A stretch of 64,000 nucleotides of DNA from a virus (Duplodnaviria; Caudoviricetes). Position 1 is the stretch's first letter. Every line of letters begins with the position of its first letter. Below are positions 2,282 to 49,062 of this stretch, piece by piece. The stretch spans positions 1 through 64,000 of the IMG/VR virus record IMGVR_UViG_3300021387_001565; one strand, 5' to 3'. A program made the translations under genes and the position numbers. Below the pieces are notes generated by a model. The model was not told the origin of the DNA. It saw only the letters and a list, made by a program, of their open reading frames with translations, and searched no databases.

Positions 2282-2836
2282 TCAGACAAAGAGGCTAGGA
2301 AACTGTGCCTGTTCGACCTTCCGCTCAACAGTGCATATCGTGTCGTTATGCACTCCACCATGAGGGACAAGTAAGACACGCTCCATCGTGAACCCATATT
2401 CCATCCCTATACCCATGCTGTTCCAACCGAAGCACAAGACCTTGCCGTTAGGCTTGACTATCCTGCCTATCTCTTCCTTAAGGTGCTGATAGAAGTATTG
2501 TGCGGCATCCTGTGTCATGACCATGCCAAACCCTTCGTAGCATTGCTTAACTTGGGTCACAGAATATGGCGGGTCGAATAGCACCCCGTCTATGGATTCA
2601 TCCTCGAACATCTTCAAGAAGTCCAGAGCATCCATATGATAGTCTGTATCATACTTGGGGTTAAGGTCATTTGTTATGTCTGCGTATTTATTTTCGTTAG
2701 CAAACGGGTCAATCCATTTTCCATTTGTGATTTCCTGCAATAGCAGTTCACGTATCGGGGCTATGGTAAACGTGTTCTTGTTCGGCATAGCCCATACACG
2801 CTGTATCTTAATATCTCTTGGAGCATTACGTTTCAT
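2282..2836 (-). CDS. adenine-specific DNA methyltransferase (short phage type)
   Basis: WIDPFA SAM-binding-like motif and DPPY catalytic motif. Confidence 0.8.
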   Translation of the reverse strand: MKRNAPRDIKIQRVWAMPNKNTFTIAPIRELLLQEITNGKWIDPFANENKYADITNDLNPKYDTDYHMDALDFLKMFEDESIDGVLFDPPYSVTQVKQCYEGFGMVMTQDAAQYFYQHLKEEIGRIVKPNGKVLCFGWNSMGIGMEYGFTMERVLLVPHGGVHNDTICTVERKVEQAQFPSLFV

Positions 2837-2838
2837 TC

Positions 2839-3567
2839 TTAATCCTCATCACGGAGTCCTGTATGACCACTTCTCTTGGCAAAAGTTGTTCGTAAAAGTT
2901 GTTCGTTTAAGTATTGGTCTATAACAGACTGAGCCTTAGTTGTAGGGGCTATGTCGCTTAAACTCGAAGCATCAATAAGGTTATCAAATGCTATAGTCCT
3001 TGCAGTCTCAAGGAATACGTCAGAAGAAACTCTTGTCTTTTTAGTGTTTTTTGAAGACTTGCGATAAACAGTGTGCTTAGGCGAAGATGCAGGTGTGGGT
3101 GTTTTGTTCTGCTTTAATTCTTCGGTACGCTGTAACGCCTCTATCGCCTGAGCCATACTACCGTTACCACCAAGATTCTTATACTGCTTTACCCTTCTTG
3201 TACGAGCCGCACGCTTAGCCCTTTCCCTGTCCGCCTTTTTAAAGGTCTCTTTCAACCATTGACGGAACATAAACTCTGTTTCTGTCACTACAGAGCCACA
3301 GGCTTTGCAATAATAGCCCCCGTCCCATTCATCGGCTGTTATCTGTAACCTTCTGCGGAAGTCCCCACAATGAGGACAATAAAACCTCGGAAGCCTGCTT
3401 TTGTACTTATATGTAACTACCTGCTTCTGTGGGGAGTTCTGCTTACGGTCGCTTCTAATGTCTTGAACTAACTCGACAATAAAACCAATCACGGCGATTA
3501 TAAGAGTGATTATAGAAATGATTTTGAATAATTCCTGCATTGAGTTATGTCCTTTCTTAATCATCAA
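2839..3567 (-). CDS. membrane-anchored Zn-ribbon protein
   Basis: N-terminal TM helix; CPHC...CKAC. Confidence 0.65.
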   Translation of the reverse strand: MMIKKGHNSMQELFKIISIITLIIAVIGFIVELVQDIRSDRKQNSPQKQVVTYKYKSRLPRFYCPHCGDFRRRLQITADEWDGGYYCKACGSVVTETEFMFRQWLKETFKKADRERAKRAARTRRVKQYKNLGGNGSMAQAIEALQRTEELKQNKTPTPASSPKHTVYRKSSKNTKKTRVSSDVFLETARTIAFDNLIDASSLSDIAPTTKAQSVIDQYLNEQLLRTTFAKRSGHTGLRDED

Positions 3568-3781
3568 AAAGTTCTTCGTATGCTGAGGACGAGCCTATTC
3601 CATCATATTGTTCTCGGGCTTCGTTATAGCCGTCGTTATACCCACGCTCGTACTCTTTCTTACACTTCTTGGTCAGTCGGTCAACCTCTGCCTGTAGTTC
3701 GCGGACACGTGCTCTGAGGCTGTCGTTCTCTGCGGCAAGTGCACTGTTGTGATATGTCAAGCCAAAATACTCTGTAGGCAT
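3557..3781 (-). CDS. hypothetical coiled-coil protein
   Basis: starts MPTEYF after a G9 RBS; YERGYNDGY motif. Confidence 0.6.
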   Translation of the reverse strand: MPTEYFGLTYHNSALAAENDSLRARVRELQAEVDRLTKKCKKEYERGYNDGYNEAREQYDGIGSSSAYEELFDD

Positions 3782-3951
3782 TGTTATACCCCCCCCCTCA
3801 GACCGCATACTTGGCAAGGTCACGCACCAACTGCTTGCCTGCCTGTCGGTCGTAGTCCACCTTACTCTTGTGTGTACGAGTACCTGTGTTCATGCTGACG
3901 AACACTCTGTGACGCTTTGCGTCCATCTTGCGTTTATTCTTATCTACCATG

Positions 3952-44244: not shown

Positions 44245-44708
44245 CACCAAGTTTCATCTAAATTAAATAACACTGAATAATCGCTGTTAAAAAATACCCG
44301 CAACTTCTCGCTAGGAATAAAAATGCAGTTCTCTCCATCCACCAACTGCTTAATGGTAATGGACTTTCTTCCGCTCTCTCGAAACTCTCTACATGTCCTA
44401 AGTGGTAAATAAACGATAAGGTCATGCTCGTAGAACCACAGGACTAATCCCGACCTCACGCCTTTTATTCCTACCTTCTTTACCATGTCATCATACTGTG
44501 AGAACGTAAGGGGGAATCTGTCCCCCTTGTGCGTCTTACAGTCAATGTAAAAGATATTGGGATAATGATATGCTATAAAATCACATATATTGCGGATACC
44601 GTATCTCTGTTTGTCCATATGGTCATACAGACGGTCGATTGAGGTATCGGGGAATTTGAGCCAATCAGATTTCATTTTATCCTCAAACTTCTTATCGAAA
44701 TCGTTCAT
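44244..44708 (-). CDS. recU: RecU-like resolvase
   Basis: FE..., CDFI...IDCK, QY. Confidence 0.7.
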   Translation of the reverse strand: MNDFDKKFEDKMKSDWLKFPDTSIDRLYDHMDKQRYGIRNICDFIAYHYPNIFYIDCKTHKGDRFPLTFSQYDDMVKKVGIKGVRSGLVLWFYEHDLIVYLPLRTCREFRESGRKSITIKQLVDGENCIFIPSEKLRVFFNSDYSVLFNLDETW

Positions 44709-46111
44709 GCCGCGTCACCCCCAATAATCTTCTTAAACGTATAAATCATATCGTCTGTAAGAGCATACTTCTCATCTGCAAGTACAACTTCCTTAATCAA
44801 ATCCTTCTTCTTCATCTCTTTCTTTACATCACCGATAACTTGGTCTTGATACCACCACTCGAACACATCTGCATCGCACTTCATGGGGATGTCAATACCG
44901 TAGTCAATTGCGGCTTGGCACATATCGTAAGCAAGTCGGTCAGCGCATTCTTGAGCATACTGTTCGGGACACTCCATGAGCAACTCATCATGCACGTTAA
45001 TGATTAACTTAGCGTCACGCTCTTTCATGAACTCATCGTTGTAAATCTTAATCATAGCGAGTTTAGTAAGAGTAGCCGCACCACCTTGAATACGTGCATT
45101 TACACACTGACGTTCAGCCTGTGCGATGGCATTTCCATTATCGATAATAGTAATTCCGAGTGCCTTTGCAGTCTCTTTAATAGCGGTAATCTCTTTGAAC
45201 GATTTAGCCGCCGCAAGTTGCTGACGGAAAGAAACGATACGAGGGTCATCGTCTCTCTTATATTTGTTCTTACACCCAAGTAAAGGATTAAAAGATGCTG
45301 ATAAACTCTTTCCGTCAATCTCAAAACTATACTTAGGGAGATTAACATCGGGAAGTCTTCTTCTGCGTCCACTGTAATCCGTTACATAACCCATCTTCCG
45401 AACGAACGCATATGTCTCATCAATCCACTTACGAACATCGGGAAAGGCATTGAAGAACGCATCCATAATCTCTTGGGCTTTTTCTTTGGTGCAACCAAGC
45501 ACTTCCGCAATGGAAGCAATTCCACGACCATACATTATCACAAATCCACATATCACTATGTGCGCTGACTATCTCATCACCCACACTTCGGTGGGGCATT
45601 GCGCTTCGGATGGTACGTACCCACCCTACGCCCTTTCGGGCTAGTCGATACACCTTACTTTTAAATATCAAAAGTCTTGGCACGGCATTAACTAAACATA
45701 TTGGTCAATTATGCTAGTCTCCACCGTTAGCAACCTTAAAGGTCACACCTGCTTTGTAATGCAGTTCACAATGTTATTCGACATGGATTACTCCATGAAG
45801 GGGCATAATGTAATTTTATAGTCGATTTTAAACCCTTTGCGGGTCTACCCAATAAAATCGGCTTTGCTGTAGCACGTCGTTCCTTCCCCTCGGGATATAG
45901 AACTCCGTCTTTAAACTCTAGGTTGTCCTCATAATTATTGTTATAAATAATCTGAGCAATAACGGCGTAAACATCTTTACCTGCTTTGTATGTCTCAGCC
46001 ATCTTCTTATCACGGGAATAGAATGCGAGTAACCTCGGTTCTTGTCCCGAACTACGAATAGTCAGAACCGATAAAAGACTGAGGCTCAATCACAGGAACT
46101 GACGTTATCAT
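44705..46111 (-). CDS. polA: DNA polymerase family A, C-terminal part (motifs A, B, C): join 46111-46055, 46047-45847, 45538-44705
   Basis: GSDYS|GQEPR (A); AKPILLG|IMYG (B); ERQCVNARIQG; NVHDE (C). Confidence 0.88.
45539..45846 (-). ncRNA. group I intron (308 nt, no ORF) in polA motif B
   Basis: 5' exon ends U (GGT), intron ends G; core-like segments AACGGTGG / GCCGTGCCAAG / GACTA...GATAGTC; splicing restores KPILLGIMYG. Confidence 0.9.
46048..46057 (-). other. candidate translational bypass (stop-hop) site TCG-TAG-T-TCG
   Basis: matched Ser codons flank an amber stop inside a UUCG hairpin; skipping 7 nt yields DYSGQEPR. Confidence 0.55.
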
Positions 46112-46116
46112 ATGCA

Positions 46117-49062
46117 TCACCTCTCTTTCAATGTAACAAGTACATAATCGCCATCTTCTTTACAGGAAACAACATCAGCAAGAACAGTGTTCCCCTTATC
46201 GTTGTTTACGTAAATACTGCAATTAGCAGTTAACGCTTCTCCTGTAATAAGACCATTGGGTGTCTTGACCTTAGACTTTTTGTACAAGCGTAGAACATCA
46301 TCAGTCACAGGCTTATCAACCTGCTTATTTGTTGCTTTAAACAACATTCTTACGAGGTGATTATGCGAAGGTATATTCTGAAGGTTTATAGGGTCGCTAG
46401 AACTCGTTCGTCCCGTATTGTGATTTATCATGCTGTTCGCAATAAAACTATGCGATGCAGGAACATGTAAATCATATACTGTATTAGTCGATGCTTGAAT
46501 GTCTTCCACGTAGGAATAAAACACATTACCGTAGGTAAGATAAGTAGATTTCTTATACTTATCGAGGTGTAGTGCTTTTGCAGATTGTACCACACCTACT
46601 TCTTGCAAAAATTTTCCATACATCTCACCCGACACACCAAGACGCTGAACGGCTAAGGGTTCAACTGCATTTCCCATATGGTCATGAGTGTTGTCATACA
46701 TGCCTCGATGAACACTGCCCAATATACCCATATTGGTAAGGCTGTCACGTAAAAAATTCATGCTCACCTTGTTAGCACAACTAATAACCAACCGCTGTCG
46801 CTGTTTATCGAACGTGCTGTCAAGTGTCATACCTCGAATATAAGCACACATAACTGACTTGGGAGACCGCATTATTATATCGGGAACTACCTTATTTCGC
46901 GCTCCCCTCTGTAAATATCTCTCTAAATCAACTATACACAAACTACCAAAGGCAATACTGCCCCCTTTGGTGCGTGAGTCTTTGCAGTAATGAGCAGTAA
47001 GACCAAATAACTTCTTAACCAAATAAGACACGCGAGCAAAAACTTCGGGGTCACTATTATTTATTTGCACAGAGAATACGTCACTGTGATGTTTATATGT
47101 GCCATCTGCGTGATACATTCCAAGCAACTCTGCAAAATCTTCATCACAATACTTAGGAAAAGTGCAATTACTGCGGTTAAATTTTATATTTCTTACTTCA
47201 CAATCAAGTGGTTGATAGTTACTCGGAAAAATGTTGTAACCATACGGGATAGCAACTGTATCACCCTTTTTAAGTGTGCCGAGTTGTTTAAATGACCACG
47301 TCTCAGATAACCGCCTACGCTGTCGTGCGCTTTTATTACGATATATGTCATCAAGAGTAATATCAGTGCATATAACAGGATGATGCGGTGTGCCCTCAAC
47401 TGAATAGCCACCTCGTAAATTAACCTTGACGGTAGGCACATTAGCAAACATAATCCTGTGAGATGCGTGCTCCAATTGCAGGTCTTTATTAACTACGGTG
47501 ACATCATGAGGATAAAACTCCCCACTCTTCTCAGAGCCGTCAAAAATGCCCGACATCTGAACATAACCATCATCAGTTAACAATAAACTATCCCCTGTAA
47601 TACAAGCCGCACCTAGTTGGTTGAAGTGCGTATGCACCCTGTCGTCCGATGGATTAGTGACCTTCGGAATAACATCAACATAGGTGGTGATTAACTTTAA
47701 AAATCCTCGGTTATCAAGTATCTTATGCAGTAGTGGTTCATGGTACTTCTTGTCTAACGCTTCAAGAATATCCTCTCCTGTGCCTTTTGACGGTTTGTAG
47801 TCGGGTTTATTCTTATCCCTTGGCTTATCAAGAATACCTGCCTCAAAACCAAGAACATCATACAGCAAGATAGACAACTGTTGTGGACTTGTGAGGCAGT
47901 CTATCGTAAGAGGGTCAACCAACTTCTCCGACTTGGATTTATAATACTTAATCAAGTTCGGGTTAGAGTGTTTCACAGGGTCGGGAACTTCGGGATATTC
48001 ACTCTGCTTAAGTTTCTTACCTGTACGTTTTATCTCTCCATAGGTAAATGGATGATATTGGGCTTCGGGTGTTTTACGCCATGCGGATACCTTATCCTTA
48101 TAAGTATCTAATAGACTTTGTAGTTCAATCTGCAAAGCATCGTACTGCTTATGATATAGCGCACTTAACTTATTAGCGAACTCATAATCTACTCCGACAC
48201 CTGTAGACTCCATCTCTGCGATAACCTCTACGCAAGGCATCTCTACTTCAAGACAGCACTTAAGCACATCAGCATTCTCGGGTTTAGATAACTGTTCAAA
48301 CTGCCACCTAAACAACTTCATGGTCATGAATGAGTCGGTAGCGGCATACAGGGCAAATACCCTCGGCGGAACAACCGCATACTGAACATTTGCAAACAAA
48401 TGGTCGATAGAGTAGTGTTCAACTGACGGGTCAATCTTGTCAATGTATTGGGGCTTCAACTTTGCGTTAGGCTCGTTTTCATTAAACATACGAGTACCAA
48501 TCATGGTATCCCAATAGATTGAAATTCGACAGCCACAAGTATGTTTTAGCACTTGATAATCGAATGAGCCGTGATGCAGGATGTTTTTTACCTTTGCAGG
48601 TTTCAACCTGTCTAACTGCTCTTTTATCTGTTTCTCTGTAACCTGCCAATCCAAACGTTCGCCTGTATTGTAATTAACATGATTGACAGGTATATAGGCT
48701 TGTTTTTGTCCTTCGGTGTATAAACACAAACCCATTAACTTACAGGTTAATGGGTCTAGGCTATTATTCGTCTCTGTATCGACAGCAAGATATCCGTTCT
48801 CGATGGCAGAGTCGATATACGCCACAAATTTATCGTAAGAGTCAATTACTATCGTGTTCTCGCGATAACGTCCAAGAATACGATATACCTCTGCGGTGAT
48901 AAGTTGCAATCTCTCTTCTATTGAGAGAGTCTTATCGTCTACGTTTGTCGCAGAGGTCTTGACTACAGGGGATTTTGGTTTAGCCACCGTGGACTTTACT
49001 TTTGTTACTTTTGCGGTTTCGGGTGCGACTACAAGCGCATCCCCCCACAGGGATGTAAGCAT
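46117..49062 (-). CDS. polA: DNA polymerase family A, N-terminal part (3'-5' exonuclease, thumb) with intein
   Basis: AVDTET, FDY, YAATD; after splicing QLGAATGRTSSSDPINLQNIP. Confidence 0.92.
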   Translation of the reverse strand: MLTSLWGDALVVAPETAKVTKVKSTVAKPKSPVVKTSATNVDDKTLSIEERLQLITAEVYRILGRYRENTIVIDSYDKFVAYIDSAIENGYLAVDTETNNSLDPLTCKLMGLCLYTEGQKQAYIPVNHVNYNTGERLDWQVTEKQIKEQLDRLKPAKVKNILHHGSFDYQVLKHTCGCRISIYWDTMIGTRMFNENEPNAKLKPQYIDKIDPSVEHYSIDHLFANVQYAVVPPRVFALYAATDSFMTMKLFRWQFEQLSKPENADVLKCCLEVEMPCVEVIAEMESTGVGVDYEFANKLSALYHKQYDALQIELQSLLDTYKDKVSAWRKTPEAQYHPFTYGEIKRTGKKLKQSEYPEVPDPVKHSNPNLIKYYKSKSEKLVDPLTIDCLTSPQQLSILLYDVLGFEAGILDKPRDKNKPDYKPSKGTGEDILEALDKKYHEPLLHKILDNRGFLKLITTYVDVIPKVTNPSDDRVHTHFNQLGAACITGDSLLLTDDGYVQMSGIFDGSEKSGEFYPHDVTVVNKDLQLEHASHRIMFANVPTVKVNLRGGYSVEGTPHHPVICTDITLDDIYRNKSARQRRRLSETWSFKQLGTLKKGDTVAIPYGYNIFPSNYQPLDCEVRNIKFNRSNCTFPKYCDEDFAELLGMYHADGTYKHHSDVFSVQINNSDPEVFARVSYLVKKLFGLTAHYCKDSRTKGGSIAFGSLCIVDLERYLQRGARNKVVPDIIMRSPKSVMCAYIRGMTLDSTFDKQRQRLVISCANKVSMNFLRDSLTNMGILGSVHRGMYDNTHDHMGNAVEPLAVQRLGVSGEMYGKFLQEVGVVQSAKALHLDKYKKSTYLTYGNVFYSYVEDIQASTNTVYDLHVPASHSFIANSMINHNTGRTSSSDPINLQNIPSHNHLVRMLFKATNKQVDKPVTDDVLRLYKKSKVKTPNGLITGEALTANCSIYVNNDKGNTVLADVVSCKEDGDYVLVTLKER
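46417..47604 (-). mobile_element. intein (396 aa) with LAGLIDADG homing endonuclease
   Basis: CITGDS...GTPHHP...LLGMYHADG...YIRGMTLD...INHN|T. Confidence 0.93.

Follow-up and report, generated by a model that had tools for sequence, protein, structure and literature searches.

How does a phage make its replicative DNA polymerase when a stop codon and a change of reading frame fall within catalytic motif A of the gene that encodes it? The question is raised by the family A DNA polymerase gene (polA) of an uncultured virus of the Caudoviricetes, IMG/VR record IMGVR_UViG_3300021387_001565, which is 147,319 nucleotides (nt) long and about 88% complete; the window, by which we mean the whole stretch of DNA analysed here, is the first 64 kb of that record. 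The gene lies on the minus strand from 49062 to 44705, is interrupted four times and is divided between two adjacent cistrons. We propose, with a probability of roughly 0.7, that the second cistron is decoded by a short programmed bypass, a stop-hop in which ribosomes would pass over 7 nt between two matched UCG codons, and that this gap stands at the end of a degenerate homing-endonuclease cassette. A minimal stop-hop between these codons had been the original prediction for the locus, and it is now backed by 22 variants of the insert that cover all frame classes, by a stop codon that tracks the genetic code, and by a switch in the frame under purifying selection.

The insert in motif A

After the ATG at 46111, the second cistron reads MITSVPVIEPQSFIGSDYS and then TCG-TAG-T-TCG-GGA-CAA-GAA-CCG-AGG, with the GGA at 46047-46045. 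The continuation, GQEPR..., is in the +1 frame relative to the leader, which is the frame of the upstream 981-residue cistron. On re-reading the sequence, the layout described in the original prediction, from the ribosome-binding site and the ATG to the displaced frame of GQEPR, proved exact. The elements concerned are:

46118..46123, minus strand: Shine-Dalgarno sequence GAGGTG of the second cistron, 6 nt upstream of the ATG at 46111
46055..46111, minus strand: leader of the second cistron, 19 codons, MITSV...FIGSDYS (from the sequence and relatives)
46055..46057, minus strand: take-off codon TCG (Ser), from the sequence
46048..46054, minus strand: seven putatively untranslated bases, namely the stop TAG (46054-52), the spacer T (46051) and the landing codon TCG (46050-48), from the sequence and relatives
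45847..46047, minus strand: resumed coding from GGA, 67 codons (GQEPR...KPILLG) that begin with the remainder of motif A and end after the first half of motif B, from the open reading frame list and contig differences

The leader consists of a short N-terminal extension and the cassette's copy of the first half of motif A, including the catalytic Asp. Dropping the 7 nt yields DYS-GQEPR, an intact motif A that agrees, as had been claimed, with the uninterrupted DYSQQEPR of phages Dp-1 and phiCTP1 and DYSGQEPR of P0078. The 3'-5' exonuclease and polymerase motifs A, B and C are all recovered in the window gene once its interruptions are removed (Pfam DNA_pol_A_exo1 and DNA_pol_A), and motif A is restored only if the 7 nt are skipped.

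The insert is real DNA and not an error of assembly. Its depth is about 61 in the probable source run, and it is spanned by contigs from two other studies, X2 (2025; covering 46006-46156) and X4 (bovine gut, 2019; covering 45970-46112), both with 0 gaps at the insert, although minor variants are not resolvable in assembled contigs such as these. The differences between these contigs and the window also report on the frame under selection. The sole upstream difference, TAT>TAC at 46058, is synonymous in the leader frame, and all nine downstream differences (46039 to 45886) fall at third positions of the GQEPR frame. The synonymous positions thus switch from one frame to the other, and the selected frame therefore changes at the insert. 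A single matched codon 7 nt away is expected by chance about once in 64 cases; the comparative data on relatives described below indicate that the matched UCG codons are not a product of chance. No second polymerase of family A, family B or the Pol III alpha type, and no suppressor tRNA, was found in the 147-kb record.

The window has two of the elements expected of a bypass site: non-overlapping take-off and landing codons able to pair with the same peptidyl-tRNA (TCG and TCG, 7 nt apart), and a slow A-site codon, the TAG immediately after the take-off TCG. We propose that decoding would stall with UAG in the A site, that the peptidyl-tRNA(Ser) would release the UCG while the mRNA slides by 7 nt, and that the tRNA would re-pair on the second UCG, with decoding restarting at GGA. 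The product would carry an intact motif A (...FIGSDYS-GQEPR...), and those ribosomes that terminate would instead free a peptide of 19 residues. A small hairpin may assist, with the Asp-Phe/Tyr codons paired with the gap and the take-off codon in the loop.

Insert variants in related phages

The closest named relatives of the window polymerase are those of the Streptococcus phage Dp-1 and the Clostridium phage phiCTP1, at about 43% identity, and a near-identity DNA search of GenBank phages with the window sequence gave no match. The window or portions of it are present in contigs of animal gut metagenomes, and the two metatranscriptome runs of the source sample contain almost none of its short sequence words. 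A scan of IMG/VR with a single protein found no matches, and an alignment query was needed; the relatives considered here are 80 IMG/VR loci from the alignment-based search, two closer loci chosen by identity, and others found by DNA pattern. With the last exon as query, a protein search yielded hundreds of C-terminal polymerase pieces of 270-400 amino acids, some of which open with an intact leader and motif A (for example M...IVGSDYSAQEPR) and others out of frame just upstream of QQEPR. About 30% of the nearest IMG/VR relatives have the gap. Scanning genome contigs for a gap-bearing polA revealed no cultured host, just two binned contigs of 130 kb (L179) and 124 kb (L181), assigned to metagenome-assembled genomes of Lachnospiraceae and Acholeplasmatales; these groups are possible hosts, the binning of phage contigs being unreliable.

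The original prediction implied that relatives should carry the same kind of insert, and they do: 22 regular types are found, each located immediately after the Ser codon of D-F/Y-S. They are 5, 6, 7, 8, 9, 10, 12, 14 or 15 nt long, and nine are in frame, eight in the +1 class and five in the +2 class. In every one the first triplet is a stop (TAG in 12, TAA in seven, TGA in three), and in 18 of the 22 the final triplet, directly before the resume codon, is TCN, the same codon as at take-off in eight and synonymous with it in ten. The take-off codon itself is always TCG, TCT or TCC; TCA or AGY occurs there in 0 of 22 types against 23 of 41 uninterrupted genes (p = 3e-6, a value that overstates independence because the 22 variants are kin through the cassette). 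TCA is at the same time the commonest landing codon (8/22). The choice of take-off codons and the frequency of UCA as landing codon suggest a tRNA(Ser) that would read the take-off codon by wobble and move toward equal or better pairing. The range of layouts is illustrated by TCT-TAA-TCA in L084, TCT-TAG-TCT in L043, TCT-TAG-G-TCT in L005, TCG-TGA-GT-TCG in L006 and TCT-TAG-AAAA-TCT in L012, and several types recur unchanged in three or four separate metagenomes.

The genetic code provides a further line of evidence. L060 and L064 decode an in-frame TAG as Gln outside the insert (Q*EPR in polA), and their inserts carry TGA or TAA. Phages that read TAG as Gln thus switch the stop of the insert, and the first triplet must therefore be a true stop. 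Conserved Gln positions are occupied by an in-frame TAG (Q*EPR, NL*NIP-like) in three loci, L060, L064 and L068, two of which have the gap.

The coding sequence beyond the insert is under strong purifying selection, with ratios of nonsynonymous to synonymous substitution rates (dN/dS) between carriers of 0.021, 0.034, 0.046 and 0.105, and its frame stays open for 340-360 codons. There is no ribosome-binding site or start at the resume codon, and the catalytic Asp is encoded ahead of the insert, so that translation begun beyond it would yield an inactive product. Reinitiation after the stop and a three-piece enzyme with a free 19-residue peptide were both considered and rejected, as only L003-type inserts offer a start codon (TTG).

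The cassette and the surrounding locus

The inserts are confined to split polA genes and occur in 0 of about 40 unsplit loci. Each carrier has a ribosome-binding site of the GGAGG type and a leader of 17-19 residues, counted from the start proximal to it. Carriers and unsplit genes are interspersed in a tree of the C-terminal domain, and three carriers (L003, L049 and L050) are almost identical to unsplit L048, L052 and L053 outside the cassette; between L050 and L052 both flanks are 95% identical and the foreign segment stops at the landing codon. The gap is thus the right-hand end of a mobile cassette made up of a C-terminal extension of the first cistron, sometimes an endonuclease gene, a ribosome-binding site, the leader and a half-copy of motif A. 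Such a cassette would invade an unsplit polA as the T4 mobA/gene 60 element invades topoisomerase genes.

Nine cassette types contain a homing endonuclease between extension and leader, and all nine have the gap. The enzyme is of the LAGLIDADG class in L003/L049 and L008 and of the HNH class in L006, L031, L045, L065, L066 and L069, with matches to Pfam LAGLIDADG_3 and PHROG 655 and 3339. Five split genes without the gap consist of adjacent cistrons and have no endonuclease; endonuclease and gap are associated in the direction expected, though not significantly (9/0 vs 13/5, p = 0.14). Near-identical phages preserve three stages of endonuclease decay: the LAGLIDADG gene is open in L049 (2649-3734), contains an in-frame TAA in L003 (1620-2672; a human-gut clone, GenBank MT839691) and is absent in L050. 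In the window copy, where 5 nt separate the stop of the first cistron from the start of the second and hold no homing endonuclease gene, the endonuclease was lost or never present. In L072 (3185-3904), an unsplit polymerase, extension and leader are joined in frame and make up an insertion domain about 80 residues long; the gene has the look of a split one that was secondarily re-fused.

That the insert lies at the border of an endonuclease cassette points to a feature borne by the cassette, in the nature of self-immunity or a repair scar, rather than to the control of polymerase synthesis put forward in the original prediction. The gap probably protects the cassette-bearing allele from cutting, or else is a repair scar that survives thanks to hopping. 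Two unsplit loci have intervening sequences exactly between the Ser codon and QQEPR, L036 (3551-3794; 244 nt, also in L037) and L029 (about 2690-3795; roughly 1.1 kb). By eye that of L036 is group I-like, with a P1-like pairing CTTCAGT/GCTGAAG, a T at the end of the 5' exon and a terminal G, and neither is recognized by Rfam. Their presence at the same codon junction in unsplit genes identifies a mobile-element hot spot. A second group I intron lies between NPNL and QNIP, just upstream of the cassette, in L050 (3138-3371; Rfam 73 bits), L003 (1072-1335) and L084 (411-728). Identity to the unsplit allele drops from 95% in the flanks to only about 80% in the exon between this intron and the extension, and intron and cassette may therefore have been acquired together.

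The remaining parts of the window gene are:

46117..49062, minus strand: first polA cistron, 981 amino acids before protein splicing (open reading frame list; Pfam DNA_pol_A_exo1, DNA_pol_A, Intein_splicing, LAGLIDADG_3)
46417..47604, minus strand: intein of 396 amino acids with a LAGLIDADG endonuclease domain (Pfam and sequence)
46120..46332, minus strand: C-terminal extension (CTE) of the first cistron, 71 amino acids (alignment with relatives)
45539..45846, minus strand: group I intron of 308 nt without an open reading frame, in motif B between KPILLG and IMYGRG (Rfam RF00028, E 3.4e-5, under the gathering score)
44705..45538, minus strand: last exon, IMYGRG... to the stop, with motifs B and C (open reading frame list and homology)

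The first cistron, which terminates at the TGA at 46119-46117, supplies the 3'-5' exonuclease together with the N-terminal portion of the polymerase domain. Its intein interrupts polA between GAA and TGR, a point at which relatives are uninterrupted, and the splice-junction residues are intact (Cys1, His-Asn at the end, Thr+1). The group I intron follows a 5' exon ending in T and itself ends in G, and a goat-gut contig that joins 45537 directly to 45846 represents a precise intron-less allele; the 308-nt intron is therefore polymorphic in nature.

The CTE follows ...VRMLFKA and is kept in split relatives; it is not found in the unsplit polymerases of Dp-1, phiCTP1 and L085 (65% identical). It is a conserved module of 60-70 residues (D-E-V-x-T-x-x-G-W-K ... 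L-x-V-G-D-x-I; alignment A2), reminiscent of Hint/intein strands and without splicing residues, and a tblastn search with the extension gave no match. The leaders (MIKS.., MKKSIKTR..; in L084, which is 74% identical to the window, MIKSVPVI...) resemble the start of split-intein C-fragments. Extension and leader together may be a degenerate split intein that serves only subunit association. The predicted complex between a relative's CTE and the N-terminus of its partner scored 0.37 against 0.04 for the best control, which lends weak support to an association of the two. The mark used (partner predicted local distance difference test, pLDDT, of 45 or more; 67% or more of contacts shared between runs) was attained by 58 of the 80 solved complexes and by 2 of the 110 mismatched pairs, and scores of at most 0.60 comprise only seven of the 80 and both mismatches.

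Weighing the bypass against its rivals and known systems

Across the family, the gap is complementary to the preceding GAC-UUY-UC, the codons for Asp-Phe. In 20 of 22 cases the minimal segment forms a hairpin of 3-7 bp with the take-off codon in the loop, for example CUUCUC/GAGAAG with a GUAA loop in L069 and GACUUUU/AAAAGUC in L147; L084 pairs GAU with AUC, and others GAC with GUC. Summed over the family, the hairpin energy comes to -66.4 kcal/mol, compared with -24.0 +/- 6.3 when the spacers are random (0/2000 as low), and the family hairpin may be a functional take-off hairpin. The purine-rich spacers were also considered as internal Shine-Dalgarno sites, an idea that was dropped because complementarity to the Asp-Phe codons fits better. 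We rate at about even odds a stronger statement, that the 5-15-nt gaps are an evolved, hairpin-assisted device for short-range bypass, a self-immunity module travelling with cassettes of several unrelated nuclease families.

A number of points weigh against the bypass, and several concern this hairpin. The UUCG-capped hairpin of the original prediction does stand as the predicted minimum-energy fold of the window (-15.5 kcal/mol), but is not significant alone, being no better than shuffles (z = -1.08; 25/200 fold as well). Spacers shuffled with their composition kept reach -53.6 +/- 5.3 kcal/mol (21/2000 as low as the family), so that the family signal is modest, and the complementarity may be a trace, at the DNA level, of fold-back templated repair at a nuclease cut. 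No hop-specific nascent-peptide signal is visible in the leader when split genes with and without the gap are compared: the leaders are conserved and basic (M-K-K-S-I-K-T-R type) and look alike in both. Four of the 22 types end in TTG, GCG, CCG or GCT, with two of three bases matching the take-off codon. L065 is irregular, with an 8-nt insert (TAG-CTCTT; about 3750-3790) two codons further on, after DFSQQ, and no matched landing codon, and this insert may be broken or decoded some other way. With the record about 88% complete, a second polymerase may lie outside it. The bypass in the window gene is read from sequence alone, and the kinship of the variants reduces their weight as independent cases. 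Short stop-hops without stimulators are inefficient in laboratory constructs, and one would be surprising in a sole polymerase.

A rival that keeps decoding at the ribosome is a programmed +1 frameshift at UCG-UAG, with the U of UAG skipped and AGU UCG read to give DYS-Ser-Ser-GQEPR, each relative using the shift it needs. Such +1 shifts are classically stimulated by a stop in the A site, and the 7-nt and 10-nt variants all belong to the +1 class. We nevertheless regard this reading as improbable: the peptidyl-tRNA(Ser) would be unable to re-pair on the overlapping CGU, the relatives need all shift classes (including those of 5, 8 and 14 nt) and the nine in-frame inserts need none, and between one and five extra residues would be placed between the catalytic Asp and Gln-x-Glu in a motif whose length is constant in uninterrupted genes. 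It would also leave unexplained why the landing codons pair with the take-off tRNA and why TCA is avoided at take-off. Reassignment of the stop to an amino acid is brought to mind by the phages that read in-frame TAG as Gln (L060, L064 and L068) and by the nine in-frame inserts, and has a negligible chance of being right. The frame shift at the insert already refutes it for the window, where TAG as a sense codon leads to FGTRTEV... and then a stop; the window polA has no other in-frame stops and the record no suppressor tRNA, all three stops are used among the inserts, and the TAG-recoded phages use TGA or TAA.

The two other readings, which dispense with decoding across the insert, seem to us slightly less likely than the frameshift. 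In one, the cassette broke the polymerase, a host or unseen enzyme is used, and the insert is a neutral scar in a dead or dispensable gene. Four interruptions in one gene, a record only about 88% complete and an L065 insert outside the rules are what such decay might present. The dN/dS of 0.02-0.10 after the insert among carriers, the frames open for 340-360 codons, and strain differences that are all synonymous in the frame predicted by the hop speak for a gene in use, as do the retained splice-site residues and bases of intein and intron and the lack of another polymerase in the record; moreover, rules for stop and landing codon would not persist in a scar. In the other, the 7 nt are removed before translation, by RNA splicing or editing or by slippage between the TCG repeats in some DNA copies. 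The gap is flanked by a 3-nt direct repeat, pairs like a P1 helix with the end of the upstream coding sequence, and sits where L036/L037 have a 244-nt group I-like sequence in an unsplit gene. To our knowledge, however, excision of segments as short as 5-15 nt by splicing is seen in no bacterial system. A group I 3' splice site has to end in G, and not all gaps do so (A in L084, L004 and L060); for this reason we also rejected excision of the gap as a micro-intron by a nearby group I core. In ten variants the flanking codons are not identical, so that a repeat-mediated deletion would not restore the same sequence, and the 7 nt are present in the assemblies of three studies, although contigs cannot show minor variants.

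The bypass that we favour would bear on more than one gene. For decades, programmed bypass has been represented by a single phage case proven at the bench (T4 gene 60), by one system in mitochondria and by a small number of terminase genes. The polA series adds more than 20 natural variants at one codon junction, differing in gap length, stop, spacer and landing codon, from which rules for take-off, for sliding and for landing can be worked out. Annotation is affected too, as gene callers label such polymerases broken or as C-terminal fragments, and many of the matches start at or just before motif A. If the gaps are indeed a hairpin-assisted device, motif A of phage polA would be the site of the first large natural family of stop-hops, and ordinary bacterial ribosomes would hop efficiently enough to supply a replicative polymerase.

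A literature search, with most subscription journals outside its reach, found no description of bypass in phage polA. No natural in-frame stop-hop is known, and shorter counterparts of the T4 case have long been expected (review PMC5009743). The nearest layouts are the laboratory stop-hops of 1987 (reviewed in PMC5009743): the 6-nt in-frame TCT-TAG-TCT of L043 has exactly their arrangement and the window one base more, but they are synthetic and inefficient. The 'byp' elements of Magnusiomyces capitatus mitochondria (PMC5009743) are likewise many short inserts that are jumped, with landing codons that sometimes match in two of three bases; they differ in being 27-55 nt long and spread over many genes, in an A-site codon that is unused and not a stop, and in being read by mitochondrial ribosomes with relaxed decoding. 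The terminase genes of Streptomyces phage Hau3 and of prophages have 7- and 10-nt gaps, with bypass deduced from alignment and supported by mass spectrometry (PMC10732093). They resemble polA in having a 7-10-nt gap in an essential phage gene, within a conserved motif intolerant of extra residues. Their A-site codon, in contrast, is the rare UUA and not a stop, three such genes are known, neither a mobile cassette nor a split gene is involved, and the role proposed for them is a regulatory sensing of the host.

The closest parallel in organization is T4 gene 60, whose bypass sits in a MobA homing-endonuclease element (Manning and Atkins, bioRxiv 10.1101/2022.08.31.505936; review PMC5009743) and whose homologues, in a literature search, are found in topoisomerase genes only. 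The two elements differ in much of their detail, and there is no sequence homology between them. The host gene is polA, at motif A, in one and a topoisomerase gene in the other; the polA gaps are 5-15 nt (7 in the window) against 50 or 20; the tRNA is for Ser and not Gly; and take-off lies about 19 codons from the start against 46. The endonucleases of the polA cassettes are LAGLIDADG or other HNH families and not MobA. The T4 element, with its 50-nt gap, has a stem-loop and an internal Shine-Dalgarno sequence, whereas the predicted polA hairpin has the take-off codon in its loop and the stop in its 3' arm, and the polA case is known only from its sequence. The architecture is nonetheless shared: an essential gene for a replication enzyme that a mobile cassette has split, a first subunit with an extension, an endonuclease gene between the halves that is often lost (present in the nine related cassette types and not in the window), and a second subunit that consists of a short new N-terminus and the cassette's copy of the coding stretch it replaced. 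In both, take-off codon, immediate stop and matching landing codon stand at the right end of the cassette, and the decay series runs from endonuclease and gap through gap only and split only to re-fusion, as in L072. The polA cassettes would thus extend what was observed in T4, that selfish nuclease cassettes bring their own means of sparing the gene they split.

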